This document shows positions 665 through 45,544 of a stretch of DNA of 64,000 nucleotides, in pieces; the first letter of the stretch is position 1, and each line of letters starts with the position of its first letter. The notes below the pieces were generated by a model that did not search any database, was not told the origin of the DNA, and worked only from the letters and a program-made list of their open reading frames with translations. The DNA lies in the IMG/VR virus record IMGVR_UViG_3300033153_009093, positions 96,001-160,000 of that record; one strand, given 5' to 3'. The DNA is from a virus. The translations under genes and the position numbers were made by a program.

Positions 665-744
665 AATGAAACCAATTATATTATATTGTTTTTTGAAATT
701 AATTATACAATTACAATATTAAATATTTTTTATGGTATCAAAAT

Positions 745-3700
745 ATGCTTTTTAAAACTAATTTATATAATAGAAATTATTACCCTATAAAGATTTTTTC
801 TATTAATGAAAATATTCTCAATGATGATAAATCTACTATTTCAAATGATTAGATTATAACCAGTTCTACTTTCAATAATGATGAAGGAAAATTAATTAAA
901 CCTTTTCAAACCACATCATAGATAACATCTGTGTCATTAAATGAAAATGTAAATAATTTTAAAGGATATATATATTTAGATTCTACTATATACACAGATT
1001 CTATTGATTATGGTACATTTGGAATATTATCAGGTTAGGAAGCAAATATAAAACATCACTTTGTTACTTTAAAAACTGGTAAGATTTTCAATAATAAAAC
1101 AGGGGGTGTATTTACAAAAGATGACGCTGATAGTTTATCGGAAGAATCTAATATCTCTTTAAAATTTAGTATGAAAGATATATCAGATTAGAATGAGATA
1201 TTAAATCATTTAGAAATGTCAGGATTTAGTGGATATGATATAGAAGATTATGATTTTTTTGGAGATGGAATAAATTCATTAACTATCAACTCTCCGCCTG
1301 ATGACAACTGCACTAATCAATTTGTTAGAGGAAGTGTAATAAATGATTAGGACACATTAACTGAATTTATTGAAAATAATAATGGCACATTGAAATTATA
1401 TAAAGAAAATGACAATATATAGTTTGACATGGAGCTACCCGGAAGATTATTATCTGATATATTTACTTCACTAGATACAAGTTATAAAAACATGATAACT
1501 TCAGAAGATTATGAAAAAAGTTCTAACTCTTCTATTGATTTGCCTATGTTACAATGGTCTATAGGCATGACAGTTATTTTGCAGTTAAAAAATAAAAATA
1601 ATAATACTCCTTATAAAATAAATTTAAAAATTGTTACGCCTTTAATATTCCTTTTATTATTACCTGAAAATGATATAATTGAAGCAAATAAAAGTGATAT
1701 TAAACCATTGCTTAATTTAATTAATAATCCTTCTGATCTTGATAAAAATACATTATTAGTTATACCAACAAAAACAAAATTATTAACTAATCCTTCCAGT
1801 TATTATTCATCTAATATAAAAGTATCACCCTTATCATTAAATACTTTATCGTTTGATACTAATGTAAATAAAGATACTTTTTTTACTATTAATAATGTTC
1901 AATAGAAAGCATCAGATTATTATACTGATAATGACTTAATAACTTTTTCGTCCGAATCGTTTCCGATAAAAAGAATTATACCATCCAGTGCAAATAAATT
2001 GATAAATAATAATTTTGACATATTTATAGATACTACTGGAATAACAGAAAGTTATATCAATACTCTAATTATTAATTATTCTTATGATGGTACAACTTAT
2101 GATATTGAAACTGATATTGAAATAATTCCTACTCTAAATGAAAATGAACCAGAAATAATATATTTACCAAATTCTATACTTGTTGAAAATTCTCATAAAC
2201 ATAAAGTAATACAAAAAGATTTATATAGTAGCAAATTTATTGACTGTATTCATTTTTCAACATTAGGAGAGGATAAACTTAATTTTCAATTAAAAAATAT
2301 AGGCGAAGCGAATGCGATAATTGAAAATGTCGAAATAGAAAATGCCTATAAATAGTTAGACGATTTAGCTAATATAGAAAATAAAACATCTAAGGATTTA
2401 GAAAATATCGAATTACTTACAGAATGTACTAATCATCACATTAGTGCTATGAAATATGTGAATAATTCTTTAACTGATATAGAATTAGAAAATTTAATTG
2501 AAAGATCTTCTATTAAAAAATATATAAATTTTACATTATCAAACATTAATCAATCTTCATATAATGCATATGGGACATCTAATTTTAAAATATTTTTTAA
2601 TATAAATAGATTTAAAACGGATATAAATTATTTAAATGGTATACCTTTAATATTTAAAATAATTTATAGAAAAAAAGATTCACCAATTAAATATACTAAA
2701 TATATATTCAATAAATCTGCTTTTAATTTAAAATTTGTAGTCGGTAAAATGGAATTATTGTATAATAATGAAGTGGAAGATATAAAATATATTAGACCTT
2801 CATCAAGAAATACTTTATTTGTTGATTTATATAGAAATATTAAATTTGACAATATTTAGAATTCTATGAGTAAATTATTATCGACCGGAGTTTCTATAAA
2901 AGATTGTAAAATATTAAATATAAATAATATTAATAATATATCGACTAATGAATATTTTATAGATCGTTCACAATTTCCATTAAGTGTATCTTCATTAAAT
3001 AATATAAATATTAATACGTTATCATTTGATTTAAATTTACAGAATGAAAAATTTTATAAATTTAAATTAAGAATATATACATCTTATGAATATATTCCTT
3101 TCATTGATATCCCTTTAAATGTAATAGCAACAAATGTGGATGTTGAAAGTATAATAAAATTTGATTCTAATGATTTTTATGTAAAAAATAATAAATATTT
3201 TTTATCATTAATAAAATTACAAACAAAAAATAGAAAATTATCTATAGTTAATACTTCTAATATAGATATTATGATATTAGATATAGACATTTACACCATT
3301 TCTGATCATTTTGGAAATGATAATTTTGATATTACATTAAATAATAGTTTTAATTTTCCGTTCAAAATGACTAATAAGAATTCTTTAAAATTAGATATTG
3401 ATTTTATTGGTAAAGATTTTGGACACTATAACAACTTTATAATATTAAAAACAAATTTAGGAGATATATATTTAAGCATTTCTTCTTTCGTAAATACAAA
3501 GTATAAAGATGTATATGTATTAATGGAAAATAGAAAGGGTACAAAATTTACATCAACATTAACTGGCAGTGATGTAGATTATATTAAGTTAATAAACTTC
3601 GGAGATGATAAATGTTTTACTGAAATAACTAAATTAGGAGGATAGAATTTAAATAATTTTAAAATATCCGAAAATGCAAAACTATTACCGAATACTACCA

Positions 3701-4620
3701 ATTATATAGAAAATGTATTTACTCCTACATCAACGGGTAAAAAAATAAGTTAGGCTGATTTTAAATTAAATGATATGCTAGAAACTTATAAATTATTAAT
3801 AGACGAAGAGACTTACATAGCTAAATTACAAAATAGTCATATAATTGCTGAAATGATAGGAACCGCATTAAGTGAAACGGCAGTGCCAGTATTTAGTAAA
3901 AGTATTATAGATTTTGGATATATCTCTACTGATAATAAAAATAGATTAACTAGAGTAGATACCTTTGATATTGAAAATTATGGAATAACTCCTTTTTTAA
4001 TAACAAAGATATCAAATGTAAATTCTAAATCTCCTTTTAAAATATCTTTACTAAATGAAAGTTATCCTATAAAGGTAAATAAGAAAATATCAATTCCAAT
4101 ATATATTGATAATACTTTATTAGATGACAATAATAAAATATATTATGATATATTTAAATTTGAATTGCAAGATTTAAAAACAAAAAATGTTTTTAGTAAT
4201 GATATTATTGTTAAATTAGAACTTACTGAAGATGATAAAAAATATATATCATTAAATTCAGAACTAATAGAATTTGGATATTGTGAAATAAATAATTTTA
4301 AATCTGATTCCGTATCCATTAAAAATTTTTCAACAGATAAGTTATCATTAGATATATCTTATAGTGGCGATATAGAATTACAAACATTGAAAGAATTCGC
4401 TATCAATTTATAGCCTAATCAAACCTTCGATTTGCCTATTTATTTCTATCCTCATGGAATTGATAATTTTGAAGGTATAATACAATTAAAATTTGATGAC
4501 GATTATATTAAAAATATAAACCTTTTTGGGTATGGTGTAGATTTTCAGTTACCTTTGATAAAAATCGAAAATGAATTATTAAAGTATACTAACAATATTC
4601 AACAATATTTAAATAAATAA
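745..4620 (+). CDS. Large (1291 aa) probable virion protein with ASH/Ig-like beta-sandwich domains in the C-terminal half; 12 in-frame TAG
   Basis: Track ORFs 1429, 1999, 2449, 2866, 3775 and 4432 are all in one frame, separated only by TAG (850, 919, 1036, 1189, 1348, 1420, 1903, 2353, 2857, 3643, 3751, 4411). ATG at 745, TAA at 4618. The C-terminus FGYCEINN..SIKN..L*PNQTFDLPIYFYP..G.IQL...L.GYG resembles ASH/choice-of-anchor-D domains. Confidence 0.8.
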
Positions 4621-4664
4621 TATTTTACGGAATCGGTTATTTATCGCCTATTCCGTAAAATATT
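4619..4664. terminator. Bidirectional terminator-like inverted repeat between convergent genes
   Basis: 15-bp arms AATATTTTACGGAAT (4619-4633) / ATTCCGTAAAATATT (4650-4664). Confidence 0.7.
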
Positions 4665-5061
4665 ATAATCCAAATTCCTATAATATTTTATATAAGTTCA
4701 AAGGTTTCTTAACAGGGTAGTATACATTATCAAAATATACCACTAAACTAGAAATGTTATTCAATATTTGCTCAGACACTTCATCATACTTAACATATAC
4801 CATTAATGAATATTCTGTTCCTAATTTAGTATCATTTTCTTGCACAAATAACTTATTATAAGTATATATACATTTCATGCTATCTATATGAATATAGTCG
4901 TCCTGTGATATTGTAGTCATATCAACTGCGCTGTCATCAAAGGGGTTATTGACATTATTATAATTTGGCAAACATAAATCGCACATCGGATTATCAATCA
5001 TATTTGCTATTAAGTCAAACGCTTTTGATTGTATTGCCACTTTTAATTTCGAATATTCCAT
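4663..5061 (-). CDS. Hypothetical protein (1 in-frame TAG near the C-terminus)
   Basis: Track ORF 4678..5061 ends in TAG; read-through adds *EFGL then TAA at 4663-4665, next to the terminator. Confidence 0.65.
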
Positions 5062-7664
5062 TATTCCACCATAACAACATCGTCTAAGGTAACATTAAAT
5101 ATATAATCACTGTTATATGATATATATGAATATTTTAAATTAATATCATATTCATATATATGATTATACTTTCTATAATTTATTAACATTTGGACATAAC
5201 CTTCAGATGATATTTGATAAATTGTTGAGTCGCTTAATAAATCTTTATTTAATATAACAGGATTATTATTATTAGTATTAAATGATAATTCATTTACAGA
5301 TAGATTAATAAATTTATTATCATCAATATTATATAAAGTAATTAAATCATTATAATTATTTATCGAATTTATAAAATAATCAGAAAATGTATAATCATTT
5401 TCATCTGAATATAAACTATAATATGCATACTAATCTATTCCTATTACTTTATTAAATATAATAAATTTATTATCTGTATCCATGATATCATCATATTTAA
5501 AAAATGTTACAAGAAATGTTCCGGTCGTATCTGTTATATTTACTTTGTAAATATCTTCCCCTATTAATACTGACATCACATCTTCATATTCCGCAACATC
5601 TGTATTATCCATATCATAAGATTTAATAATATTAACGTCTGTTAAAATAAAATCTTGTAAATTTTCATAATTAGTTGTATCTATAGTTAAAATATCTTTA
5701 ACATAAGAAAAGGTATAATCGATTACTATAGGATCTTTATATATTTCAGTTAACTGTAATTGTTTTATTTCATTATATAAATGATAAATCAAATCATAAT
5801 TCAATTTATCATTTATATAATATTTATTAGATAATAGATAATAGTAATCAAATGAAATTGTTTGAATATAATCGAAATATAAAAATTTATACTTATAAAA
5901 GCTTTCATCCAATACCGTATTATTTCTAATAAAATGATTATCTAAAATATCTAATGCATCATTTTCATTATCAATCGCTATAATAGATAGCATATTATGA
6001 GGTAATATATTTATATCATCATTTATTAGTATAACATTATCTATTCCATTAGTATGTATATAATAAGATAATGAGTATTCTTCGCTTTTTATAAAGTCGT
6101 TATAGATTACATTTGCAGTATCAAATGTTTTATTAAATTTATACAAGTTATCAAAATCCTAAGATAAATTATATATATAATTATGCAATTTATTATAGTC
6201 CTACTATTCATCCATATAATCATTTACTACAAAATCAATTTCATAATGATCTACATCCAAAGAATATGAGTAATATAATTCATCATTATTTATAGGTATC
6301 AGTCCACCTATAGCAACTTTATATTGTCGTAAATAAAATGTTTCGTAGTTTATATTATCAGACACATATAAAACTATCGGCAAATTTGTAGTAGTGTCAA
6401 ATCCTTGGATATCTATAAATTCCGCTGTCTCTATACTTCCAATATTTGAATCTACAAAATCACCATGAATATCCTAAAATTCTATTTGCTTTGTTAAATA
6501 ATTTCTATACTTTTTAATACTATTATAGCTACTTATAAATTCATCATAATCTTCATCTAATATAACTGTAGAATCATTATTGTAAGCTGTTTTTATATAG
6601 TTATATAAATAATTATTATATGATTTAAATTCTATATTGACTATCTCTTCTTGTTTATATAACTTTAATTGATTTGATGTTATCGAATTACTTGGTACCT
6701 AATCTGATAAAGTGCTTTCCTCAATATCATTAAATGTAAATTTTAAATCCTATCTAACAAATGGATGCGGATAATTATCCACATATTCACTATGTCCATT
6801 TTCTGTTACTTTTATACTATAAGGATATTTATCTGCGCTAGTTACAATATATGAATATTGCTCAAAACTAAATATTGCCGATGGAATGTAACTTTTAACA
6901 TCATTTAAAATATCATATAATGTATTTTTTAATTTATAATTATCTTGGCTTCCGTAAATATATACATACTTTTCATATCCATTAAAATTTATTTTAAAAG
7001 TAAATCCATTATAGATAACTTTATATGGTAAATAATTTGAATATATATATAATTCTTTGTATGATAACGAATTTTGCAATTGTTCAAATTCCGATTCATT
7101 TAATCCTTCAGTTTTTATTAATACTAAATCAGGATATTCTATATTTGATTTAGGATAATATACTGTTGTAGGTGTCTCTATTTTCTTTTCAACTATATTA
7201 AATAAATAATCATCAATGGGATCTATTTCTATTCTATTATACGAAATAGATTTTATCGATGATAAGTAACCGGAGTCCTTTTCATTCTTTATAATATTAT
7301 CTACAAATATACCCTTAGTATCAATATCATTTGAATAGGTCTAAATAAATTTTATATTATTAGGATACTTTATAGATGTTATTATAAATATTTCACAAGC
7401 ATTGAATTTTGATAATATCATCTAATGAATAAGCTATAATTTTTCTACATTAGATAAATTGGCATCAATTTTTACATCATCAATTTTATCATATAGCCCA
7501 TATACATATTTTATTATTGTTGAGCTTTTATTTTCTGAATACTTATGATATAGATATGTTGAAAAAATATAATCCATTTTTTCATTAACGGCATATTGTT
7601 GCATACCTATCGTATCGCTGAATATGTATTCTATATTTAGATTATTAGAATTAAATCCTAACAT
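5061..7664 (-). CDS. Large (867 aa) probable virion/baseplate-region protein; 10 in-frame TAG including a TAG-TAG pair
   Basis: Track ORFs 7434..7664, 6750..7079 and 5430..6146 share one frame with only TAG between them. The final TAA overlaps the next ATG (TAATG at 5061-5063). Confidence 0.8.
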
Positions 7665-8281
7665 TATATAGACCTCTATAAAAATTTACTTAATTCTAAA
7701 TTATTTATATCATTAGATATAAATAATTTTATATCACTATCGACTATTTTATTCTTTATTACATTATCTTTAAAAATATAAGCTATTTTATTATTAGATA
7801 AATTGTAAATTGTAGGAAATATATATACCAATTCGTTATCAACTGATAATAATATTATAGAAGAAAAGTTATTTATATCATTATCAGAATCTATGGTAAG
7901 AATTAACATATTATTAATATAACTAATATTCTTTAATTCAATAATTTGAGTATATGTATTATATAATATAGATGAATAATTTATCCAGTACCTATAAATA
8001 TCACTGTATTCATCATTACCATCATTGTATGATACAGTTAAATCAATATAATCCTTATTTATAGAATTGCCTATATTAATAATTTTAATATACCCTTTCA
8101 AGTTATAAGAAGTGTCCTTTACAATTGTAAAAGGTGTGTTTATATATTCTATATTTAGATTATCCGTTGACGTAATATCGTCAATTTGGAGGTCTGCGGT
8201 TCCTTGATTAATAATATCAAATCCGAAATTTTTTAATGTATATAATTCTTTTATACCAAGTTCAACACTGTATTCATTCAT
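7664..8281 (-). CDS. Probable virion protein with an ASH/Ig-like domain
   Basis: FDIINQGTADLQIDDI motif typical of ASH-like domains. TAG at 7676 is followed by RSI and a TAA overlapping the next ATG. Confidence 0.6.
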
Positions 8282-8292
8282 ATCAATTCCTA

Positions 8293-8802
8293 TTAAATAT
8301 TTGTAACATTAGAAAAATTCGTTAATAGATTATCTTGATCTTTTGTATCATTTAAATATTCAAAAAAATTATCTAATTCAATATATCTATTAACTGAAAC
8401 CAAATAATTTAAATCTAATGATAGCATATTAGGAATGATATAGTTTGTATCATCAAATTTTTTTATCTACACTGCTATTAATGTTTTAGTGGATGAAGGT
8501 TCATTCTATTTATAAGCACTATCGGTATTGATAGTAATATTATTAATAGGTTTATAATTTAAATTGTACTCTTCTATATTTAATGATTCTGATAAATTAG
8601 TAACTATTTGATTAAATATATATACATTATTATTTTCAATAAAATTTGAAATATTTATTTCATTAATAATTAAATCATTCTATAAAGTATTAATATATGC
8701 CAAATCTTTTTCTTCGGTATATCTAATGATATATAAATCAAATAACATAAACATCTAAGTAGATAAGCATAATTTAAAATTATCATTCGTGTACTATTTC
8801 AT
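8293..8802 (-). CDS. Hypothetical protein (169 aa) missed by the ORF track; 5 in-frame TAG
   Basis: Manual translation MK*YTNDNFKLCLST*MFML...TL*NDL...YK*NEP...AV*IKKF..., closing on TAA 8293-8295. Confidence 0.7.
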
Positions 8803-8806
8803 AATA

Positions 8807-10069
8807 TTACCCATTCACTAACATTACAGGGATTGTTAAAGTTTCACCTGATTTAGCTATATCAAAAATTAAATCATTAAAATAATTAGCATTGCTACTT
8901 AAAAATGAAAGATTATATAAATTATCTATATTTTTTAATGTACTCTATGGAATATTCTTCCTATCTTGTAATATTCTTCCTATTGAATTTGTTTCAATTG
9001 CTATCGGCATAGAATTTTTAAATCCATCAGAATATTCTTTATATTTCTTTATCTAATAATATCTGGATGAATATTTCGTTTCAATTAGATTTTTAGGTTT
9101 AGCTCCATTATATAAATGAAACAATCCATCATGTTCTAATTGTATTTTATTAAAAATAATATCAAAAAACTTTTTAGTAAATTCAAAAGGTATATATCTA
9201 TAAATGCCATTATTTTTATTTAAAAAAATTCCAACAGTAAATAGTGACTGAACAATAAAATAATTATCATTCAAATTTTCAATATCTGATTTAATAGTTG
9301 TCTAATTAGAATTGTATATAGAATTTAAACTGATATCTATAATACCGCTACTTGTTATTGATGTTAAATATTTATTATTATAATATAATTTAATATTATC
9401 TACGTCATCAGTGGTAGTATAAATAAAAAAATGAACAGGATAATAAACACCATTTAAATAAAATAAATAAAAATTGCTATGGTAAACTTTATGAATATTT
9501 GATTTTATTATTATGGTAGGATTGAAAATTGTTCTGATGTTATCTTCATCATCGATATAATATTTTCCAACTAATTCTTTTATCGAATGAATATTCCCTG
9601 ATAATGTTATTAGTTTTTCTACATTTTCTATTTCATAAAAAGGATAATATTCATTAGAATGAATATTATCATTTTTTAATGTATTATATCGTTTATAATA
9701 ATTATCATTATTAATAATAGAATACTATTCATCTAAAGTTAAATTATCATTATATAATGATAATTTTATTGCTTCATTTGCAGCATCTATTGCAATATTA
9801 TCTGTTTGAGTAGCGGATTTTATAAATCGATCTTTATAAAAATTTTCCTAAGATTCTGATAAATCTCCTGTATAAGAAAATAAATCTATAGGATTTTTAT
9901 TATACATTACATTATACAATGGCATATCGGATTCAAGATATATTAAATTACCAGAATTGATATTTTGTAAATTGAATTTATAGCTCTATAATGTTGGATG
10001 ATTTGATACGGCTTTTATATTATAATTTGATAATATATGCTGCACTTTATCGTAAGAAGAATATAACAA
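8807..10069 (-). CDS. Hypothetical (probable virion) protein, about 420 aa; 6 in-frame TAG
   Basis: Open frame from TTG 10069 to TAA 8807 interrupted only by TAG; contains track ORF 9053..9274; start codon uncertain. Confidence 0.7.
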
Positions 10070-10091: not shown

Positions 10092-11402
10092 TTAAACATT
10101 TTCAAATATACAATCATCAAATTCGTTTTTTAGTATATTAATTTTAATTTTAATACTTTTAATAAATACATTATTGAAATATTTACTATTATCAATTAAA
10201 TCATATACAATGGCATCTTTTTTATTATCACTTTTTCGTACAATCCGCCCTATTGTTTGAATAAGAGATTTTCTTCCCATTATAGGAGTTGCCAATATTA
10301 ATCGATTTAAAGCGGCATAATCAAAGGCATGCGAAGCATATTTATAAGTTGCTACAATTACGTTATCATTTATTTTATCAATATCATTTTTTTCAGAAAA
10401 TAATTTAGCAGAAGTTATATTTTTTTCTTTTAAATAATCATACACAAAATTAAGTTGTTTTTTTGTTAAACAAATAATTATTATTTTATTATTTTGTTCT
10501 ATTTCTTTTTTTGTGATATTATAAATATTAGATATCCATTCTTTAGATTCATGTAATTTTGAATTATATATCGATCTTGCTTGAATAAAATTTCTATTCC
10601 ATAAATACGAAATCCTTTTACCGTACTTTTCACCTAACCCACTATCGAATTTTATAAACTTTACAGTAGGTTGATAATCATATGAGCCATAAGTAACTAA
10701 TATATCATCGAATATAGATTTAACTAAAATATTTTTTTCTTTATCAAGATAAGGCGTAGCAGATAATCCTATTACATTTTTAGTGTTGAATAACAATGAA
10801 GCTGATGCATATTTAGTACCCATCTTATGCGCCTCATCCCAAAATATTAGATCGATTCCTATTGATCTAAATAATGGATAAAATTCTTTTATATTATTTT
10901 TTACTTTTGAAGCTAATGTCTGAGGTGTTGTGATGATAACTTTTTTATTTTCGACATCAAAAATTTTTCCTTTTATTAATCCAATTTCAGAATCTGTAAT
11001 ATTTGTATGTCGTAAAAATTCTTCTCTCCATTGTTCGACAATTTTTTCAGTATCAATAAGAATTAATGTTTTTTTATTTAAATAATGTGCTAAATATATT
11101 GAACAAACAGTCTTACCAAATCCAGGCCTTGCGTGCAATATACCATTTATACATCCAGTAGTAGTATAAACATTCAATAAATTATCAATTATACTTATTT
11201 GTTCCTTTCTTAATTTAGAAACAAATTTATATTTTAATATTTCTTCAGCTTTAAATTTTTTATCACTATAAGTTAAAATATCTTTATTATGTGCATATTT
11301 TAATATATTTCTAGGAAGGTATATATAATCATCTGTAGAATGTAAAGTATAAGGTTCATACTTTTCAATAAACGGACTATCTTTATTCAATAAACAAAAC
11401 AT
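10092..11402 (-). CDS. uvsW: UvsW-like superfamily 2 DNA helicase
   Basis: PGFGKT Walker A, DEAH, LSATP and QTIGRIVR motifs. Confidence 0.8.
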   Translation of the reverse strand: MFCLLNKDSPFIEKYEPYTLHSTDDYIYLPRNILKYAHNKDILTYSDKKFKAEEILKYKFVSKLRKEQISIIDNLLNVYTTTGCINGILHARPGFGKTVCSIYLAHYLNKKTLILIDTEKIVEQWREEFLRHTNITDSEIGLIKGKIFDVENKKVIITTPQTLASKVKNNIKEFYPLFRSIGIDLIFWDEAHKMGTKYASASLLFNTKNVIGLSATPYLDKEKNILVKSIFDDILVTYGSYDYQPTVKFIKFDSGLGEKYGKRISYLWNRNFIQARSIYNSKLHESKEWISNIYNITKKEIEQNNKIIIICLTKKQLNFVYDYLKEKNITSAKLFSEKNDIDKINDNVIVATYKYASHAFDYAALNRLILATPIMGRKSLIQTIGRIVRKSDNKKDAIVYDLIDNSKYFNNVFIKSIKIKINILKNEFDDCIFENV

Positions 11403-12713: not shown

Positions 12714-12787
12714 TGGACTCGGTTAAGAGAATCGAACTCCTATACACAGATTTAGAGTCTGTTATCTTGCCATTAGATCAAACCGAG
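12714..12787 (-). tRNA. tRNA with anticodon CUA (reads UAG); inferred tRNA-Trp(CUA)
   Basis: CTCGGTT TG ATCT AATGGCA AGAT A ACAGA CT-CTA-AA TCTGT GTAT AGGAG TTCGATT CTCTT AACCGAG T CCA. All four stems pair, with a GG D-loop, TTCGA T-loop and encoded CCA. The amino-acid identity is inferred. Confidence 0.95.
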
Positions 12788-20202: not shown

Positions 20203-21103
20203 TACTTTACCTTTTTAATAAACTTTTTATTTTATCTAATTGTTTTTGTTTATCTTTAATCTAATATTTCTCAAAGATATGTAATAACTTATACCCTTTT
20301 TCTTTACATATATCAGTTTTCATTTGATGATATTCATCAGCGGTATAATTTTTCTTATATTTCTTTTTTATCATCTCATCAGAATGCCAATAACTGCCAT
20401 TAAATTCAATCGCAAAACTCTTTGAGGGTATTACTATATCCAGTTCATAAGGCTTGATTATAGACCTATTGGACTGTTCATAATCAATATTTAAAGAGTC
20501 AAGAAAAGAACATATTTCTTTTTCCGGTTTTGAAACTTGATTTGAGCATTTTGGACAACTTCTTCCGCTTAAATGACTATTTGGTGTTTGTTTAAATATA
20601 CCATGCTTAGGGCAAATTATTTTTATTTTAACCAGACTACCTTTATATTTTATTAATGAGTAGTCGTATTTATTATTATGTAATTTATTTGATTTATTAA
20701 TAAAAGTATCATCTGTTATAGTTCGTCTATTACATTTTGGACAACCTGAGCCATATAAATGAGAATTTGCTTCTTGCTAAAATATACCATGAACTTTACA
20801 AATAATTTTAATCTTTTTATGAATGGTTATATAATTAACTAACTTATAATTATATTTCTAACAATGTACTTTAATTGCTTTTTCAATAAATTCTTCTGTA
20901 GTTAATTTTTGAAAACCTGAACACTTTAGACAACCTTGTCCGCGTAAGTGTTTATTAGGAGTTTGATTAAATTCTCCATGAATAGGGCAAAGTATTTTAA
21001 CTTTTACATGAGCATTTACATACTTAACTAATTTATAATTATATTTCTAACCATGAACATTTATAGCTCGTTCTATAAATTTTTCAGTCGTTAATCTCTT
21101 CAT
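20202..21103 (-). CDS. DUF723-like Zn-repeat homing endonuclease with a C-terminal PD-(D/E)xK domain (about 300 aa); 4 in-frame TAG
   Basis: Three repeats H..KY.Y..V.Y....K.KI.C..HG.F.Q....H..G..C.KC, then ELDI, IEFNGSYWHS, LHIFEKY*IKD. TAG at 21047, 20858, 20777 and 20261; missed by the ORF track. Confidence 0.85.
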
Positions 21104-21109
21104 TATTAA

Positions 21110-21835
21110 TTATTCTCCGCAACTTGCACTTAAATTAACAGGTTCGGTATTTCCGGTGATTTTTTCTAATATTATATCCACTGTCATAATTCTAGCAGTT
21201 AATTGAATAGAAAGACTTCCTCCGTCCTTTTTACATTCCAAATTAAAACTTTCTAAAAATTGCTGATTATCATATAATGGTAAAGAATCAAATTGAAATA
21301 ATTCCTATTTTCTTAATTTTTTATACGTCATTACTCCGCTGTTAATATCCATTGTTTGATATAATTTATCATTATAAATAACTGAAAGATTAGACATTAC
21401 ACCTATAGCAATATTATAAATAGTATCAACTATAGGGTTCATGTCTTCTGTTAATGTCGCAGCTAATAAAATTTCATCCAATATATAATCAAAGTGTATA
21501 AGTTCTTCCATGCAATCTATATATGAAAAAGTTTCATTCAATGAAATTTTATTAATAAATGCTCTTATGCACTTTTCATCTACATTTCCATCTTGATCCG
21601 CTATCTAATTTAAATTATGGTATGCTTTCATTTGAGCTTGATAACTCGAAGGTAAACTAGTTACATTTAATATAGTATCATCGTCATCATAACAACCTTC
21701 TAATTTAAATGATACTTCGCATACAATTGTATCATTAATATGCTATATATCAAACATATTATATTTTAATGCTCTTGTCATATACGCAGGAGTTTTATTA
21801 GTATTGACATCATCTGATATTACAACTATATCCAT
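21110..21835 (-). CDS. Hypothetical protein (241 aa); 3 in-frame TAG
   Basis: Contains track ORF 21305..21541; open from ATG 21835 to TAA 21110 except for TAG. Confidence 0.7.
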
Positions 21836-24276: not shown

Positions 24277-25410
24277 TTACCTTTTTTTAGCACCTTCATC
24301 TATCTTATCGATAATAGTTTCTATATCTTGTGATTCTGATGCATTTTCTGAAATTTTCATTGCGGTTGAAATTGATGTAAACCTATCTAATTGAATCTTA
24401 TCATTTTCAAAATAATAATTAAAAATTCTTTCTTTTGATTCTTCTACAAATTTTTTATCATCATCGGGGTAAAACTCATTGAAGATGCTATTAATAGCAT
24501 ACTTCCATTTATTGACACATTTATCGGTTAATAAATATTGATAAAAATCTTTTAATCGATGTTTATTATCTTTATCATCTGCAAAGAAATACCAACCTGA
24601 CCTTGATCCTATATCCTTTTTTGATTTCAAATAATTAATAAGTGTCAACGGGGAGTCGTATCCTGAAGTATTTGTAACTTCGAATTCTATTTTTCTATGC
24701 GGTGATATTATTTTACTTTTTTTAGTTTGTATAGTTGACACAAATCCAAATTCAGGATTAATCAATTTTGACTTCTTTCTTGTTGCATATAATGTCAAAA
24801 ATGATTTATGTTTTACAGCATTACAAGAAGGTGGTTCAACGGGCATATATTGACCTTGCATACTTTCCCTATGCTGATTCAAAGCAAACATAGTTAAATT
24901 ATTATCATAAAATTTTGTAATTCTAAATAATTTAGTAAATGCTCTTGCTTGCATCCCTATCTTTTCATATCCATCCAACTCTTCATTGGCGGGAGTTTGT
25001 TGTAATGTATCCCATATAATAAATAAATCTACTCCGGGATTATTTTCTTTAACCTCGAAAATAATTTGTCCCGCTCTTTCAATTGATTCGGGATTAAGAA
25101 TTATAACATTATCTAGGTTTTCTATTCCTAATGATTTTAATCTCATACCTGTTACTGATTCTTCTGTATCAAAATACAAAGCGATATATTCTTTTGATTG
25201 TTTTATATATGATGATAATATTTGTATTGCCAATGTCGATTTTCCAACTGATGAAGTTGCCCAAATATATTCCAATTGATATTTTGGCATACCACCTGAA
25301 CCAATAAAAGCATCAAATATAGGATTTCCTGTTAAAAAGAAATCATAATTATCATCTATTTTTATAATGTCCTTTTTTAATGTTTTGCGCAAAGCATCTA
25401 AATTTACCAT
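24277..25410 (-). CDS. recA: RecA/UvsX-like recombinase
   Basis: TSSVGKST Walker A, YFDTEES, IIWDTL, NQHRE, SGWY motifs. Confidence 0.8.
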   Translation of the reverse strand: MVNLDALRKTLKKDIIKIDDNYDFFLTGNPIFDAFIGSGGMPKYQLEYIWATSSVGKSTLAIQILSSYIKQSKEYIALYFDTEESVTGMRLKSLGIENLDNVIILNPESIERAGQIIFEVKENNPGVDLFIIWDTLQQTPANEELDGYEKIGMQARAFTKLFRITKFYDNNLTMFALNQHRESMQGQYMPVEPPSCNAVKHKSFLTLYATRKKSKLINPEFGFVSTIQTKKSKIISPHRKIEFEVTNTSGYDSPLTLINYLKSKKDIGSRSGWYFFADDKDNKHRLKDFYQYLLTDKCVNKWKYAINSIFNEFYPDDDKKFVEESKERIFNYYFENDKIQLDRFTSISTAMKISENASESQDIETIIDKIDEGAKKR

Positions 25411-26519: not shown

Positions 26520-27851
26520 ATGAAAAAGTGTATAAAAAATTATTCTATAAACATATCATCATCTAATTATAATAAATTAACCAATTATTTATTATACTAT
26601 AATAAGTGTAAAAATTTATTTTATAATAAATATTAGAATGATATCGGTACAATATATTTACCATATAAATATGAACTACGAGATACATTAGTTTCAAATA
26701 TAAAAAATAATGATTTGAATATTAATGAATTGGATTTATTAAAAAGCGTTCCCGCTAAATTATAGAAAAACGCATTAACTGAATCTATAACTAATTTAAA
26801 ATCTAATTAGTCTAATACAAAAAATAGAATTAGACAAAAAATAAAAAAGAACAAAAATTTTTCTGAAAAAGATACTCATTATTTATATTATGTACTTAAA
26901 TCAAATAACATATTACATAATATAAATAATGGAGATTTGAATATAACCTTAGAAAAATTTGATGTAAATTATAAAAAACTTAATTCATATTTATATCGAC
27001 AAATAAAAAAAGAAAAAAGAAAACCTTATTCTAAAAGTAATAGTTATATTATAGATAGTAGCTCGCAAATATTATACAAACAAATAGATAATAATTTAAT
27101 TTGTTTCCTATCAACATTAAAAAAACGAGAAAGGATTTTAATCCGTTTATCAAATAGTATAAAATATAAAGGCGATATTCGTATAGTATTAAAAAATAAT
27201 AAAATGGAACTACATAAAGTTATTAATATTAAACCTCAATTAAATAACAACAATTCTATTACTGGAATTTATATTGATTTTAATAATTTATTCACAACCC
27301 AAAATAATATTTATGGTAAAAATTTCGATAAACTATTAAAAAAATTTGCACATATTATTCACTGTAAATCAAATAAAAGGGAAATCCTTAAATCAATGAA
27401 TAATATACTAATACAAAAAAATAACTTAGGTACAAAAAAATAGCACAGTAAAAAAAGAAAATTTATTAATGAATTAAATTCCTTTATAAATTTGAATTTG
27501 AATTTATTAATTAAAGAAGAGCGGCCTAAAACTATTATTATAAAAAAAATAAATAAATATTTATTATATAATAATAGAGATAATTTATTTAATATTCCAA
27601 ACCATCATTTATAGATCTTAAATAATTATATAATAAATTACATTTATAAACGATTAGAATACAAAACACAATTAAATCAAATTAATATAATATTAGATAG
27701 TTCAAATTATACAATCAAAGTATGTAATAATTGTAAAAGTAGAAATACTATTATTACAAAAGGGTACTTTAAATGTAATAATTGCATGGTTAGTATAACT
27801 AAAACATCTAATACAATAAACAATATGATTGAGCATCACGGTGTTAATTAA
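26520..27851 (+). CDS. tnpB: TnpB-like (IS200/IS605 OrfB) protein with all three RuvC acidic residues apparently lost (443 aa); 5 in-frame TAG
   Basis: PAKL*KNALTESITNLKSN*SN, GDIRIVL, GIYIDFNNLF, NNLGTKK*, KRLEYK, CNNC..CNNC zinc finger. TAG at 26634, 26763, 26808, 27441 and 27612. Confidence 0.75.
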
Positions 27852-27961: not shown

Positions 27962-27992
27962 ACCGGAGAAGATTTTCTTCTCCGGTTTTTTT
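27962..27992 (+). terminator. Rho-independent terminator ending the tnpB-like transcript
   Basis: 11-bp stem ACCGGAGAAGA/TCTTCTCCGGT, TTT loop, followed by a T run. Confidence 0.85.
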
Positions 27993-28443
27993 ATAGATAC
28001 TTTTCAATTTTTTTATTAGTACTTTCATGTAAAATCATATCACTTTTATTTTTATTAAAATATGATTTTGGTGTGCCTTCAAATTTTCTCGACATTCCCC
28101 TCTAATCGGCAATCATTTGAAGTATGTATTTTTTTGGCATTTCAATAGGAATTATTTCATTTTTCCTTGTTACAGATACCTAGTAATTCTAATGATGTTT
28201 ATTTCTTTTTTGATGTTTATTCTACCCTTGTTGAAATAATTTATCGTTTCCATCAGATTTACAATAATTATTTAAGCTATCTTTCTTTTCAAAAAAGATA
28301 GCAGATGGTATAAATTCGGATGGTAAAAATTTTGATAAGTCATGAGTAATTGCATGATAATATAGTCCCATGTTGATACATTCTATTCCTACATTCTTTT
28401 TATGCTCAATAATATATTTAAAATATTTCTAATATTTATTCAT
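27991..28443 (-). CDS. DUF5662-like HD-related phage protein (150 aa) missed by the ORF track; 5 in-frame TAG, all at conserved Trp positions
   Basis: MNKY*KYF..HK..HDLSKF.PSEF..QG*NKHQKRNKHH*NY*V..EMP.KY..QMIAD*RG. TAG at 28429, 28222, 28189, 28180 and 28102. Confidence 0.85.
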
Positions 28444-29947: not shown

Positions 29948-32413
29948 TTAATCACATCTTGAATATCCACAGGATATACATTTTATACAGCCGCCTTCAT
30001 CTAATAATATTTCCTTACAATTGGGACAGTTATTACTATTATTAGAATATACATTTTCATTTATATATACCTTTAATACCCTTGAAACTACAGCTACAAA
30101 ATCACTAACAAAATTACTAGATTTTTTAAGTTGTTTTATAATGAATTCATGATATACTCCATGTCTCAATGATAATGAAATCATCCTTGTTAATGCTTTA
30201 TATTCATCATTCATGAATAATTCAGTTATTTCATTATATTCAATATATGAGTTTCTAAATGGAATTTTTAAAGTATAATTCCCATGATTTTTTATTATTA
30301 TTCCTTTTTTAACATTTTGCGAAATATTAAAAAATTCATTTTTCTTCCCGGCAAATATTTCATATGGAGCATCGTTTAATATTCCTATAAGAACTATCCA
30401 CTTTTCTCCAGCCACTGAACAGTGATGTATTTTACAACTTAATTCCTTTGGCCTCTTCGGTGCGCATTGATAAGTGATACTATCAGGTCTATATAATTTA
30501 TCAATGCAACTTTTTACTTTTTTCTTATCATATTTTAATTTATGCTCTATTGGATTTTCAAAAATCAAGATACCTTCTCTTGAACCTTCACGATACACTG
30601 ACAACGCTTTTAAGCCTTTATTAAAGGCATCGGAGTATATATCCCCTATTTTTTGAAAATCAAAATCAAAGGGCAAATTATACGTTACAGAGATGGCGGC
30701 ATCAACCCATCTTTGAACCTTGCTCATTAATTCTACCTTTTTAAAGGGGTCAATTTCATGAGCAGGTGATAATAAATCAGTATCGATATATTTATTTACA
30801 ATATTAATTATTTTTTCACCAATTTTACCATCTGTATCTAACTCTGATCCGCTAAAATTATTAATTAAATTATAATCAAATACATCACATTTCCCTATTT
30901 CTTTCATTTTGCTTAATACTATTTTTTTAATAACACTTGGTAAAACAAAATAGTAATCATATTCATTTTTAGAAACTGCTCTTGTTTTTCTCCAATAAGC
31001 AAACCCTATAGTTGGTTCTATGCCAGATGATAGGCAATCATTCGGAAATGTCATTGAAATTGAACCAGTGGGGGCTACTGATAATAAAGCTCCATTTCTA
31101 ATTCCAGTATTGTAAAATAAATCTTTTAAATCACTAAACTCGTTAAATAAATTTTTTAAAAATTTAGTTTCTTTTAATGTTCCTGTTTCTTTTCCACGTA
31201 TCCAAGCAGAACATGGCCCTCTTTCGATGGCTAATTCGCAAGAAGCTTTAAATGCATAATATTGATAATATTTAAAAAATAAATCAACTGCCATAATAGC
31301 TTCATCTGAATCATATTTAATATTATTATTATAAAACCACATATGAAGGTTTGTTACACCTAATCCAATTTCTCTTAAATCTTTAACAATTTTTAATTGT
31401 TCTGGTAATGGAGATTTATAATCATTGTCAATTTCAAATTGAATTACATTATCCATAAACCTAACCAATGAATAAGTTTTCTCTTTCATAAAATCATGAA
31501 AATTATTAGTATCAATAAAAGGCACTTCTTCCATATTTAAAGATGCCAATGCACATACTCCATAATTAGGTAAAGGTTTTTCAGAACAAGCATTTGTTCC
31601 TATAATTTCATAACCTAACGCTTCTTGAATAGAGCCGTCTTTCATCCTATCAATGAATTGTATACCCGGTTCAGCATGATCATACGATTGCTTACATAAT
31701 AAATTAAATATATAAGATGCATCTACAAATTTTGAAATCTTATGATCTTTTAAATCGAAATATAATTCCCATTTTTCATTATTATGAACTGCCTTCATAA
31801 AATTATCTGATATTTGCACAGATATATTCATATTTTTTAAAGTATCTAAATCACTTTTAGCTGTAATAAAATCAATTACATCAGGATGAGAATCTTTAAT
31901 AGCACTAAGAATGGCCGGTCTTCTACCTTTCTGACCGACCTCATCCGCAATAGAATCAAAAGATTTCATCCAATTAATAACACCTTCTGATACTTCAGAA
32001 CTATTATTAACCGCAGTTCCTTTAGGTCTTAATTTTGAAAATTCTATACCAAGGCCTTGTCTATATGCCGCCATTTTAGCACATTCATATCTAGCTTTAT
32101 AAATAGCTTCTAAAGTATCATCACCTATAACTACACTAGTACAATTAAATAAACTGATTTTTTTAGATTTATTATTAATACCGGATATAATAGAACCACC
32201 GGGCCGCCAAATGCCTTTTAATAAATCCTCTTTCCAGTTATTTTTCCATGAAGTTTCTTCAGTTTCAATTGAAACTGAAGAAACTTCAGTCGCAATATTA
32301 TCAAAACATTGTCTAACTGTTTGGGTTTTATTTTTTAAATACTTAGATTTAAAAATATCTATTCTCATTTGATCATTATTAAAATAATCATTTATAGCTG
32401 TATTATCTTTCAT
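29948..32413 (-). CDS. nrdJ: Class II (adenosylcobalamin-dependent) ribonucleotide reductase
   Basis: PGGS, LFNC, TNACSEK, GLGV, RNGALLSVAPTGSIS, YREGSREG, C-terminal KRPKEL...CPNC..GGC.KC..CGYSRC. Confidence 0.9.
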   Translation of the reverse strand: MKDNTAINDYFNNDQMRIDIFKSKYLKNKTQTVRQCFDNIATEVSSVSIETEETSWKNNWKEDLLKGIWRPGGSIISGINNKSKKISLFNCTSVVIGDDTLEAIYKARYECAKMAAYRQGLGIEFSKLRPKGTAVNNSSEVSEGVINWMKSFDSIADEVGQKGRRPAILSAIKDSHPDVIDFITAKSDLDTLKNMNISVQISDNFMKAVHNNEKWELYFDLKDHKISKFVDASYIFNLLCKQSYDHAEPGIQFIDRMKDGSIQEALGYEIIGTNACSEKPLPNYGVCALASLNMEEVPFIDTNNFHDFMKEKTYSLVRFMDNVIQFEIDNDYKSPLPEQLKIVKDLREIGLGVTNLHMWFYNNNIKYDSDEAIMAVDLFFKYYQYYAFKASCELAIERGPCSAWIRGKETGTLKETKFLKNLFNEFSDLKDLFYNTGIRNGALLSVAPTGSISMTFPNDCLSSGIEPTIGFAYWRKTRAVSKNEYDYYFVLPSVIKKIVLSKMKEIGKCDVFDYNLINNFSGSELDTDGKIGEKIINIVNKYIDTDLLSPAHEIDPFKKVELMSKVQRWVDAAISVTYNLPFDFDFQKIGDIYSDAFNKGLKALSVYREGSREGILIFENPIEHKLKYDKKKVKSCIDKLYRPDSITYQCAPKRPKELSCKIHHCSVAGEKWIVLIGILNDAPYEIFAGKKNEFFNISQNVKKGIIIKNHGNYTLKIPFRNSYIEYNEITELFMNDEYKALTRMISLSLRHGVYHEFIIKQLKKSSNFVSDFVAVVSRVLKVYINENVYSNNSNNCPNCKEILLDEGGCIKCISCGYSRCD

Positions 32414-36850: not shown

Positions 36851-38086
36851 TTATGTCAATGTTTCAAGAATATAATTTTTAAAATTATCAACAATTTGTT
36901 TTTTAACTGTAATATTCCATTCATTACAACAGCACGGAGCATAATCTTTATATCTCATATCATAGTCTTCAGATTCATGTAACGATTTTTGAAAATCGCA
37001 AATATCGTCCGCCTTCTTTACATGAATAAAACAAGGAGAAGTTGGACAATCGGATTTTATGTTTAAAGATTTTGTATATTTATAATATTTAGTTCTGCAT
37101 TCATATGGAAATGGGCCGTATAACCCAATAGCAGGCTTTTCAATACCTTCACGAAAATGAAATAGTGCAGTATCAACACTAATACAAAGAGTAGCATCAT
37201 ATGCATCAAGAAAAAATTCATCAAGATTTTTAGCTGCTATAATTTTAATTCTGTCATCTTTTAAATTATTAATATAATTTATATCTTCGATTCTTAAATT
37301 CAATTCATGGATATATATATTTACATCCTTATTATTAATACATTCAATTACGGATTCATAAATATCCTGAAATCTCATAGACCTAATTATAGCAGTAGAT
37401 CTAGGATTAATTAAAATACTAGGTTTATCAGAATCTATATTAGATTTATTATTATTTATTCTTGCTGTTTTTAATTGAGGTCTTCCCCATTCAAAGTCAA
37501 ACTCATCAATCCCGATAGTTTTATATTGTAATTCATACCAATTATCTTTACTATTTTCAATAACACCTTCATAATAAATAGTCTTATACCTACTATTTAC
37601 TCGTTTTTTTTCTAAAGAGTTATTACTTTTATATCTTACAATTGGCGAAAAATAAGATATAAATGTCACTGGTTCTCGATACCATTTAAACACGCTTCTA
37701 TATTTTTCTTGAGAAATGAATTTTAAATTTTTAGATTTCTTATTTAAAAATTGTACTATATTCATTGAAATAGAAGATAAAGCGATTAAATCGCCTATGC
37801 CTCCGGTTCTTAATATAATAGGAAATACCATTTTATTTTCTTTTGTAAAATCTAATTTATCTATAACATCGTCAATATTTTTTTCATATTTAACAATTTT
37901 ATTATAAATATTTTTTACTTGAGATGCTATCATATGTCTATCAGAAGTTCTAATAACTTCTATTAACCTTTCTTTAAATGTTAACCATATAGTATCAGCG
38001 AATAAATACATATGTTTAGGTTGTATTTTTATATCATTATCATTAATATTGATAGAAATACTTTTTTTAAATTCAACAATTTTCAT
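36851..38086 (-). CDS. Glycosyltransferase family 9-like (heptosyltransferase-like)
   Basis: RTGGIGDLI, ISVDTALFH, IGLYGP, C-terminal Cys cluster (CPTSPC). Confidence 0.7.
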   Translation of the reverse strand: MKIVEFKKSISININDNDIKIQPKHMYLFADTIWLTFKERLIEVIRTSDRHMIASQVKNIYNKIVKYEKNIDDVIDKLDFTKENKMVFPIILRTGGIGDLIALSSISMNIVQFLNKKSKNLKFISQEKYRSVFKWYREPVTFISYFSPIVRYKSNNSLEKKRVNSRYKTIYYEGVIENSKDNWYELQYKTIGIDEFDFEWGRPQLKTARINNNKSNIDSDKPSILINPRSTAIIRSMRFQDIYESVIECINNKDVNIYIHELNLRIEDINYINNLKDDRIKIIAAKNLDEFFLDAYDATLCISVDTALFHFREGIEKPAIGLYGPFPYECRTKYYKYTKSLNIKSDCPTSPCFIHVKKADDICDFQKSLHESEDYDMRYKDYAPCCCNEWNITVKKQIVDNFKNYILETLT

Positions 38087-39023
38087 TAATATTACACCTT
38101 ATATTATTTATTTTTTTTAATAGATAATTATAATTATCTATTATATTTTTTTCATTAACAATATTTAATGATATATTATCATCAAAATTATTAATATATA
38201 ACTTCATTATTTTTAATAGTTCTGTTATATTAAATTGCTTACAATTATAACAAGCATCTTCTATACAGTTTATATCATCAAAATTTATATTGAAGTATTT
38301 TATAAAATACTTCAATAAATTATTATACAAATGACATTCAGTACCAGTTTTATATTTAATGATATACTTTTTCATATTATCTATATCATCAAAATTAATA
38401 AAATTATTTAATGATTTTGACATTTTTTCTTTTTCATTGCTTCCATAAATAACATTATTAGAAATATTAATTTTTATATTTTTTATATTTAATTTTTTAT
38501 AAATATCTTTCATAATGTTAATATTTGATTTTTGATCATTTGCTAAAAAAACAGTTGTTATTTCATTATCATTATGATATAATAATACATCAAAAGTTTG
38601 TAAAACTGGATATAATAAAAATCCCAAAGATTTATTCTTACTATTTTTAAATGTAGGATTTTTTAATAATTTTGATGTATTTATTAACGGAAGATATTTA
38701 TATGTTAAAGAAGTATGATAATTATTAATGTTTTTATTATTTTGAAATATAAATAATAATTTATTAATATTATTATCAATGTTTTTATTATTATATATTA
38801 AATATGTTTTATATAATGAATAAATCTTTTTTGCTAGTAAAATAGAATTATTATTTATTTTATTAGCTGAAATATTAGATAATTCTGAATGAGTTTCAGC
38901 TAGTAAAATAAATATTTTATTAACATTTTTAAACATTATATTATCAAACATATTTAAAATTGTCATAACATGTCCAATATGTAAATTATTTCCCGTTGAT
39001 CTAATTCCAAAATATATATTCAT
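38073..39023 (-). CDS. trpS: Divergent tryptophanyl-tRNA synthetase-like protein (class Ic)
   Basis: GIRSTGNNLHIGH, YPVLQTFDVLLY, ANDQKSN, KMSKS, C-terminal C..CK; contains no TAG and no TGG. Confidence 0.8.
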   Translation of the reverse strand: MNIYFGIRSTGNNLHIGHVMTILNMFDNIMFKNVNKIFILLAETHSELSNISANKINNNSILLAKKIYSLYKTYLIYNNKNIDNNINKLLFIFQNNKNINNYHTSLTYKYLPLINTSKLLKNPTFKNSKNKSLGFLLYPVLQTFDVLLYHNDNEITTVFLANDQKSNINIMKDIYKKLNIKNIKINISNNVIYGSNEKEKMSKSLNNFINFDDIDNMKKYIIKYKTGTECHLYNNLLKYFIKYFNINFDDINCIEDACYNCKQFNITELLKIMKLYINNFDDNISLNIVNEKNIIDNYNYLLKKINNIRCNINENC

Positions 39024-39044
39024 AAATTATTCCCTTTTAAAATA

Positions 39045-39092
39045 TATTTATATATATCATATTTTTTTAAAAAAATATGATATATATAAATA
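39045..39092. promoter_or_regulatory. Perfect 48-bp palindrome at the divergent strand switch
   Basis: TATTTATATATATCATATTTTTTT|AAAAAAATATGATATATATAAATA is self-complementary; it lies between the ATGs at 39023 (-) and 39134 (+). Confidence 0.6.
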
Positions 39093-39133
39093 AATATAAG
39101 AAATAGAATTAATATTAACCAATAAAAAAATTT

Positions 39134-40540: not shown

Positions 40541-40548
40541 TAGCTACA

Positions 40549-41304
40549 ATGAAAAATAAAACTTACATTAAAACCCCAAAAAAAGAAAATACTACAACAT
40601 CATTATCAAATTCTAAATTTGATGAATCTCTATCATTAAATAATATTTAGTTTGGTGGCAATTCGAAAGTATCAAATACTTCTGAAGAAATAGAAGAAAC
40701 ATCGAATACAGAAGAAACGGCAGATTCCCCGGAAAATTTTTTCTTTGATATGGGAAATGTTTCATTAAAAGATAATTTCACTATATATTTTGACTCGCCA
40801 GTATATTCTAATTCTGTAAATATGGCAATGGATTTATTAAAACAGGTTAATAGAAATATTGCAATGACAGAATTAGAATATCCTGAATTGAAAGGTTTAT
40901 TAAATGTAAAATTTATTATCAATTCAGGTGGCGGTGAAATTATTCAAGGTTTGAGATTATTCGATTCTATAAGAAATAATGCGTTTCCTGTAAATACTAT
41001 TGCATCTGGAATGGCCGCAAGTATGGGAATAATTTTATTAGTAGCAGGACATAAAGTTCAAGCGGTAGAAAATAGCGTATTAATGATTCATCAGTTATCT
41101 GCTGGAATGGGTGGAAAATTTTTTGAATTAAGAGATCATATGAAATTTTATACAGAATTGCAGAATAAATTGTCTGCAATTTTAATAGAAAATTCAAAAG
41201 CGAAAAAAGAAGACGTACTTAATTTTATGAAAGGTGAATCGTTTATATTAACTAAAGACGCTTTAAAATTAGGTATCATAGACGAAATAGTAAAATCTAT
41301 ATAA
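40549..41304 (+). CDS. clpP: ClpP-like protease with an N-terminal extension crossing 1 TAG
   Basis: INSGGG, GMAASMG, MIHQ, EA-like DALKLGIID. In-frame ATG at 40549 with TAG at 40648-40650; alternative start at ATG 40750. Confidence 0.8.
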
Positions 41305-44880: not shown

Positions 44881-45519
44881 ATGAGCAATGATAATATAAC
44901 GATAATATTTGATAAAAAATTTTTATTTTATACAGATAAAATGTTTGGGGATTTAGATTTTTTTAATGATAAATTTTAGATGATATTTAAGTCTTTTTCT
45001 TTCATTAAAACAAATATAAATAGAAACTTTAAGTATAGTGATAAAATGGGAGTAATGTCACTGGCAAATAAAGTATTTAAAGAAGTATCAAGAGATTTAA
45101 AATTATTTAATAATTATATATATAATCCAGAAGATAATATACAGGTTAGTATATCGTATTTTAAATCTCTTTATGATGCTTTTAATATATATGATATTGA
45201 TTTCGTTAATAGAATTAAATTAATGATATTGGCATATGAATAGAATATTATTTCGGTAAATTCATTATTGAAATCTAATACTTATAAACATTATTTAAAT
45301 AAAGAACATGATATACTTGAAATAATAAAAAATAATACTACTGATAAAAATTTATTAGAACATATTCGGACAATAAATGAAGTAATGAAAATATATAAAG
45401 AATTGTCCGAATATAACTTAAAAGATGATATAGATAATTCGAGAACCATTTACCGAAATAATATTATTTCTATGGTAAAAGATTATAATGATAAATATCA
45501 AGAAGATATTATATTATAG
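44881..45519 (+). CDS. Hypothetical protein (212 aa); 2 in-frame TAG
   Basis: Joins track ORFs 44980..45243 and 45268..45519 through TAG 44977 and 45241. Confidence 0.65.
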
Positions 45520-45544
45520 AATATTGATAAATAAAAGGAAAATC

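Follow-up and report, generated by a model that had tools for sequence, protein, structure and literature searches.

This study concerns how tryptophan (Trp) is written in a 64,000 nucleotide stretch of viral DNA, positions 96,001 to 160,000 of the IMG/VR virus record IMGVR_UViG_3300033153_009093. We call this stretch the window, and coordinates refer to it unless they are marked as genome positions. The record is 180,374 bp long, carries inverted terminal repeats, is rated 100% complete by CheckV and has a GC content of 24.1%. Its gene repertoire is T4-like, with rIIA/rIIB, UvsX, UvsW-like and gp46/47-like proteins and a Gp23-type capsid protein. Full-length genes need in-frame TAG as a sense codon: coding density is 69% if the standard code is applied and 92% with TAG as sense, and open reading frames (ORFs) of up to 2,213 amino acids (aa) then close on TAA or TGA. 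Across the 218 ORFs called over the whole genome there are 299 in-frame TAG and 294 TGG codons, and the Trp-containing genes form two classes, one TAG-using and one TAG-free. Counts are given below as TAG:TGG, TAG being, as judged from alignments, a second codon for Trp.

The stretch from 745 to 10069, for which the first-pass annotation, an earlier reading of the window from its letters, had reported a contrast in codon use with replication and metabolism genes, contains the following genes:

745..4620, plus strand: TAG-using gene of 1291 aa, 12:1, with a weak Cep192_D4 Ig-like domain at the C-terminus (orthologues 9:0 in the relative L013 and 9:2 in L014)
4663..5061, minus strand: gene of 132 aa with one TAG, five codons before the TAA, which is sense and aligns with TAT in relatives
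5061..7664, minus strand: TAG-using gene of 867 aa, 10:0 (orthologues 9:4, 8:2 and 11:2)
7664..8281, minus strand: gene of 205 aa, 1:1, its TAG sense and four codons before the TAA
8293..8802, minus strand: TAG-using gene of 169 aa, 5:0
8807..9925, minus strand: TAG-using gene of 372 aa, 5:0, with the start corrected to the ATG at 9925 and a beta-rich core

The hand counts of the first-pass annotation were reproduced for 745..4620, 5061..7664 and 8293..8802, for a gene it had labelled portal (5:2), and for the TAG-free NrdJ (0:10), UvsX/RecA (0:4), UvsW-like (0:4) and Dam (0:5) genes. Its 6:0 for 8807..10069 is right when counted from a TTG start, but the real gene is 8807..9925 with 5:0, since in all relatives the gene begins with the ATG at 9925. 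In five genes the sole TAG stands 2 to 8 codons before a TAA or TGA, and the two of them in the window were compared with relatives. A true stop at TAG was ruled out in both, since the protein stays conserved beyond the TAG and relatives have TAT or ATT at its position.

The bimodal use of TAG and TGG, first noted in a handful of genes, holds genome-wide and is stronger than had been described. Among the genes with at least four Trp sites the TAG share is below 0.1 in 20 and above 0.7 in 30, with only four in between, and permutation of the labels among sites gives z = 24. A binomial mixture has a Bayesian information criterion (BIC) of 684 with one class, 354 with two and 364 with three, so that a third, 'middle' codon class is without support. 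The two fitted classes have TAG shares of 0.012 and 0.874 and hold 59% and 41% of the genes. In the median TAG-using gene the first TAG is codon 40; single genes carry up to 20 in-frame TAGs, and six tandem UAG-UAG pairs occur.

That local AT content alone sets the TAG share, a possibility already named in the first-pass annotation, has next to no chance of being the explanation. The TAG share does correlate with gene GC (Spearman rho = -0.50), but GC accounts for only 11.5% of the deviance and gene identity for 76%, and genes matched for GC (0.20-0.27) stay split (18, 1, 28). Out of frame, TAG-using genes have TAG and TGG at 1121:507 and TAG-free genes at 1297:617; the ratio is thus the same in both classes and only in-frame TAG is affected. 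Other A/G synonymous pairs lie 3-5 points apart between the classes, against a move of TAG/(TAG+TGG) from 0.012 to 0.90. Moreover, three relatives with GC contents of 19%, 23% and 27% keep the class of each gene. The two-class split is independent of composition.

The assignment of TAG to Trp, proposed in the first-pass annotation, is borne out by alignments and by the depletion of TGG. TGG makes up 0.87% of the codons in TAG-free genes and 0.14% in TAG-using genes, while the usage of glutamine (Gln) and tyrosine codons is unchanged. In an alignment of the large terminase, two TAG columns coincide with an invariant W in distant standard-code terminases; the TAG columns of the alignment show a mix of Q and W because the database proteins of the relatives had been translated with TAG as Q. 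Aligned codon by codon with five related loci, TAG stands opposite TAG 101 times, TGG 34, TAT 21, CAT 8, TTT 5 and CAA once, so a Gln codon faces TAG once in 171 TAG pairings (101 TAG-TAG and 70 others). This pairing profile equals the substitution profile of TGG. Read from these alignments, TAG is Trp in this phage. The relatives came from a protein index; scans of IMG/VR with the TrpRS-like and UvsX proteins returned none.

Two genes of the window bear on how the codon is decoded:

12714..12787, minus strand: tRNA with anticodon CUA, 74 nt, the sole tRNA of the genome, located among TAG-free genes
38073..39023, minus strand: TrpRS-like gene, a divergent class Ic aminoacyl-tRNA synthetase, nearest to tryptophanyl-tRNA synthetase (TrpRS) and the only synthetase of its class in the genome, with no TAG and no TGG

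The best solved relatives of the TrpRS-like protein are TrpRS (2g36, E = 2e-7), and the NCBIfam tyrS and TrpRS models score about equally. A syntenic tRNA(CUA) is present in the relatives L012 and L014. In L014, the closest relative, ARAGORN gives it 91 nt (L014:1469-1559), compared with 74 nt here, which could reflect an intron or a long extra arm. The genes for the code change are compatible with the standard code: the TrpRS-like gene is free of TAG here and in three relatives, and the tRNA(CUA) lies within a TAG-free run, which fits the code switch envisaged in the first-pass annotation. In all four genomes (the three relatives being L015-L017) the TrpRS-like gene has no Trp codon of either kind. 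The tRNA nucleotidyltransferase (CCA-adding enzyme) is TAG-free as well (0:1). A palindrome that is long, AT-rich and almost perfect, atatatatcatatttttttaaaaaaatatgatatatat, lies in the divergent gap 39024-39133, between the TrpRS-like gene and the gene that begins at 39134; it may serve the code-change gene as an operator or as a regulatory site acting in both directions.

Besides these, the following genes of the window could be placed in one of the two classes or carry a single TAG:

24277..25410, minus strand: UvsX/RecA recombinase, TAG-free
29948..32413, minus strand: NrdJ ribonucleotide reductase, TAG-free, 821 aa, without an insert
62637..63335, plus strand: Dam-type D12 adenine methyltransferase, TAG-free
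10092..11402, minus strand: UvsW-like SF2 helicase, TAG-free here
20207..21103, minus strand: HNH homing endonuclease (phrog_559), TAG-using, 4:1, inside a run of replication genes
21110..21835, minus strand: gene of 241 aa, TAG-using, 3:0, 11 nt past the TAG-free primase gene, TAG use kept in relatives
26520..27851, plus strand: gene of 443 aa, TAG-using, 5:0, TAG use kept at the same place in three relatives
27991..28443, minus strand: DUF5662 protein, TAG-using, 5:0
40549..41304, plus strand: ClpP-type head maturation protease, 1:0, TAG kept in relatives
44881..45534, plus strand: SLT lytic transglycosylase, TAG-using, 3:0
48465..50237, plus strand: gene of 590 aa, TAG-using

The TAG-free class comprises the DNA polymerase (0:4), two helicases and the UvsW-like one, the primase, UvsX, NrdJ, rIIA/rIIB-like proteins and ligase. 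It also comprises the dUTPase/dCTP deaminase, dNMP kinase, thymidylate synthase, SbcC/Mre11-like proteins, polynucleotide kinase and Dam, together with one HNH endonuclease and one SLT gene. In total about 150 genes are TAG-free, many of them small ORFans. TAG is used in the large terminase (9:0), the Gp23-type capsid protein (1:1), a RusA-like resolvase (1:0) and a phosphoesterase (2:0). No family match was obtained for some 45 other TAG-using genes, among them all large genes of the central block (21.4-105.9 kb). Recoded codons are thus concentrated in structural, packaging and lysis-type genes and absent from replication genes, with the HNH, SLT and UvsW-like genes as exceptions. Compared gene by gene over the genome, as the first-pass annotation had proposed, the annotated members of the two classes match the late and the early functions of T4-type phages.

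Two of these genes deserve a further remark. A Cas12f/TnpB TNB zinc-ribbon domain is weakly matched in the gene at 26520..27851 (E = 5e-5, short of the Pfam cut-off). Homologues of NrdJ in relatives (P0030, P0033, P0034 and P0038) are about 1150-1200 aa long and contain intein/LAGLIDADG domains.

The first-pass annotation had taken the four TAG-using genes at 745-10069 for probable virion genes, which our searches did not confirm. Pfam gave only below-threshold matches for the four (Cep192_D4 and DUF7652), PHROGs gave no credible match for these large genes, and a PDB sequence search with three of the four returned only three marginal antibody matches (E 0.011-0.5). For the 372-aa protein, an exhaustive profile search found 28 relatives, all clade-restricted. 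AlphaFold2 gave a confident core at about residues 100-260 when supplied with 17 sequences, and a pLDDT of 36 with four. For the predicted core, neither PDB nor BFVD yielded a Foldseek match at E <= 0.001, and the best VIA-align match (Z 5.8) was within noise. A sheath, tube and tape-measure gene order was considered and dropped, as sequence, profile and fold searches gave no match; likewise no search backed the portal label of 48465..50237. Given how large the four genes are and where they lie, a virion role is nevertheless a reasonable assumption. Nine repeats in P0164, a 2091-aa protein of a relative, are matched by the profile of the 372-aa protein, so this small protein and the giant central-block proteins have a repeat module of about 50 aa in common.

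Given the two classes, the question is which of them selection acts upon. In TAG-using genes the TAG frequency is 0.87 and mixed TAG/TGG pairs between relatives make up 0.21, with 0.22 expected by random assortment; for AAA/AAG in the same genes the values are 0.88, 0.19 and 0.22. In the central block, where the class is set by position and so avoids the circularity of a class defined by its TAG use, the TAG share is 0.82 and the synonymous A/(A+G) is 0.856. The positions of TAG are uniform along genes, with no N-terminal bias (KS p = 0.15). TAG/TGG in TAG-using genes thus behaves like a saturated neutral A/G synonymous pair, and neither share, turnover nor position showed any sign of selection for TAG there.

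The TAG-free genes behave differently. Neutrality predicts about 207 TAG for this class, which has 247 TGG. The NrdJ count of 0:10 becomes 0:11, 0:10 and 0:12 in three relatives, and UvsX (0:4) and a glycosyltransferase-like gene (0:5) have the same counts in all four genomes. Conversely, the relatives retain TAG in TAG-using genes scattered over the replication region (21110-21835, 26520-27851 and 41711-42214). TAG is kept out of this class by purifying selection, across relatives. Together these results indicate a ban on TAG in early genes, not selection for it in late ones, and its strict absence from some 150 genes suggests indirectly that there is a stage at which UAG cannot be read.

An explanation by positive selection, in which TAGs are kept in late and lysis genes to block premature or host-forced expression, is unlikely in view of the same tests, although it has several points on its side. 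The overall pattern is what the model of Borges et al. (10.1101/2021.08.26.457843) predicts for recoded phages, down to a recoded homing endonuclease and code-change genes that the standard code can read. Here too TAG is found in a homing endonuclease, in a transglycosylase and in the head protease, and the single TAGs of the protease, resolvase and capsid genes are kept in relatives. Some TAG-using genes lie directly behind TAG-free ones, as does 21110-21835, so that TAG could be their sole timing control. Against this, the share of 0.82-0.87 in the permissive class equals the neutral synonymous share of A, turnover between relatives equals random assortment, and TAG is not biased towards the N-terminus. 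Lysis-type genes are not recoded above this background either: the two SLT genes split 3:0 and 0:3, and neither a holin nor a spanin was identified.

A mosaic origin, with TAG-free genes recently acquired from standard-code phages or hosts and TAG yet to accumulate in them, is very improbable. Genes of nucleotide metabolism and repair are often horizontally transferred, and the TAG-free genes are slightly richer in GC (0.266 vs 0.233). However, they are syntenic and TAG-free in relatives at 50-80% aa identity, at which synonymous A/G sites are saturated, and codon usage at other sites is nearly equal in both classes. It is also improbable, if somewhat less so, that the split reflects decoding efficiency without timing, with UAG always read, slowly or incompletely, and purged where translation must be efficient or accurate. 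The major capsid protein, presumably the most abundant one, would fit, as it has only one TAG and one TGG and the highest GC of the late genes. But each gene falls wholly into one of two classes, without a gradient between them, many of the TAG-free genes are small ORFans unlikely to be highly expressed, and the terminase and the giant proteins with 9-20 TAGs must still be completed.

The account we consider the probable one combines constraint on genes translated early with AT drift elsewhere, which together would yield both the two classes and a gate. The TAG-free class would consist of the genes translated while the cell still terminates at UAG, a stage that would precede the build-up of the phage tRNA(CUA) and its TrpRS. 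In the TAG-using class, TAG and TGG would be interchangeable and would have drifted to an AT-biased equilibrium, at the share of 0.874. TAG-using proteins could not be completed before the code change, and this would amount to a translational gate on late functions. The gate would then be a by-product of early-gene constraint and AT mutation pressure, not of selected TAG enrichment.

How termination at UAG is overcome has to be considered separately. The first-pass annotation had supposed that the phage tRNA and TrpRS outcompete the release factor (RF) RF1 of the host, and had suggested looking beyond the window for an RF2 gene or an RF1 inhibitor. The whole genome contains no gene with an RF-1 domain and no recognisable RF1 inhibitor. 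Genes with as many as 20 TAGs are difficult to square with plain competition against RF1: by arithmetic, 90% suppression per codon would leave a yield of 12-28% for proteins with 12-20 TAGs, which implies that UAG termination would be almost abolished late in infection. It is therefore possible, though we hold it only tentatively, that the code change is an obligatory and near-complete switch, in which some further factor almost abolishes termination by RF1 and TAG acts as a purely translational timer, also for genes that share a transcript with early ones. If so, the TAG/TGG state of each gene would read out the temporal programme of the phage.

A full-length tmRNA lies outside the window at genome positions 171981-172339 on the minus strand (L008:13981-14339; Rfam RF00023, 100.7 bits), with the tag peptide ADDYAIAMAA according to ARAGORN. 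It may be relevant where ribosomes stall or terminate at UAG, and it could aid the identification of the host.

In T4, replication genes are early or middle and structural genes late; uvsW and the packaging resolvase are late as well, and the translation of I-TevI is delayed. The annotated genes split by codon class in line with this timing; the resolvase conforms to it too, and so does the UvsW-like helicase in relatives. Unlike in T4, where timing is transcriptional and late promoters carry TATAAATA, in this phage the genetic code would itself provide the layer of timing. There is no enrichment of the T4 late box TATAAATA: only 7% of its 216 copies are non-coding, and it occurs in one of 22 gaps upstream of TAG-using genes and in 7 of 68 upstream of TAG-free ones. 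A sigma-70-like motif (TTGACA-N15-19-TAnnnT) was found in 7/68 TAG-free and 1/22 TAG-using gaps, a direction that fits without being significant. No late sigma factor was recognisable among the small TAG-using genes, where one bearing TAG was sought.

Another short motif was found beside the first gene of the window:

697..704, no strand given: palindrome AATTAATT, in the 80-nt divergent gap (665-744) of two giant TAG-using genes, conserved in this gap in L013 and L014

Of its 42 copies in the genome, 16 lie in the 7.7% that is non-coding, a five-fold enrichment. It sits 29-48 nt ahead of start codons, is kept at orthologous gaps in relatives and occurs in 11/22 gaps upstream of TAG-using genes compared with 6/68 upstream of TAG-free genes (p = 9e-5), figures that come from an exploratory, after-the-fact search in which divergent gaps count twice for a palindrome, leaving about a dozen independent sites. 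This is a hint that AATTAATT is a candidate class-specific, perhaps late, promoter element, to be taken as a lead. Many TAG-using genes of the replication arm, 21110-21835 among them, have no room for a promoter of their own. Those just behind TAG-free genes are probably co-transcribed with them, in which case the codon would be their only timing control.

Several observations weigh against the account by early-gene constraint and AT drift. The labels early and late would apply to the gene classes by analogy with T4-type phages, and most TAG-using genes, including the four at 745-10069, are without a recognisable family or fold. Proteins with 12-20 TAGs must be finished, yet no RF gene was found; the T4 late box shows no enrichment, and the evidence from AATTAATT is post hoc. 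The phosphoesterase uses TAG. The phrog_559 HNH paralogues fall in opposite classes, 0:3 at genome positions 39814-41268 and 4:1 at 20207-21103 of the window, and so do the SLT genes, 0:3 at genome positions 34448-35005 and 3:0 at 44881-45534 of the window. The statement in the first-pass annotation that replication genes have no TAG stands for this genome but is not universal, as the UvsW-like helicase, 0:4 here, takes the values 2:2, 3:1 and 1:1 in three relatives; L012, L013 and L014 each have one to three TAGs in it. It is the only annotated gene seen to change codon class between genomes. Since uvsW is a late gene in T4, similar timing may explain why TAG is tolerated in the relatives, though not its absence from the copy of this phage.

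The arrangement resembles that of the recoded crAss-like, Lak, Agate and Jade phages (10.1101/2021.08.26.457843, PMC9523058) in several respects. Recoded stops are found in a homing endonuclease as well as in genes of structural, packaging and lysis-type function, replication and code-change genes remain compatible with the standard code, and the AT-rich genome encodes its own suppressor tRNA. Like Jade phages, this phage has its own TrpRS, and as in Jade, Agate and Lak phages the recoded modules are scattered over the genome. The recoded phages of Borges et al. (10.1101/2021.08.26.457843) differ in other respects. Only the reassignments of TAG to Gln and of TGA to Trp were seen there, and neither was found here, where TGG is the depleted codon and TAG means Trp; moreover, this phage has no release-factor gene, its lysis genes are not preferentially enriched, and its TAG share equals the neutral expectation. 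In the literature searched, TAG as Trp was found only for the plastids of Balanophoraceae (NCBI table 32, PMC10268348) and in no phage report. Extreme AT pressure turns TGG into TAG in these plastids as well, but they are organelles with one code for all genes, without two classes, an infection cycle or a competing host code. The known logic of early and late recoding is thus found here with a codon meaning that we did not find reported for phages.

Beyond what the published surveys describe, the codon share of the late genes sits at the neutral mutational equilibrium, so that constraint on early genes alone would suffice, without selection for stops in late genes. This poses the question of how UAG termination is silenced enough for proteins of 1,000-2,000 aa with a dozen or more UAGs. 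Because Trp has a single standard codon, TAG versus TGG marks each gene cleanly as being in one of two states. Across about 120 mostly unannotated genes, this label separates those that must be readable in the standard code from those that only need the phage code, and it makes the hypothesis of recoding as a means of timing directly testable.

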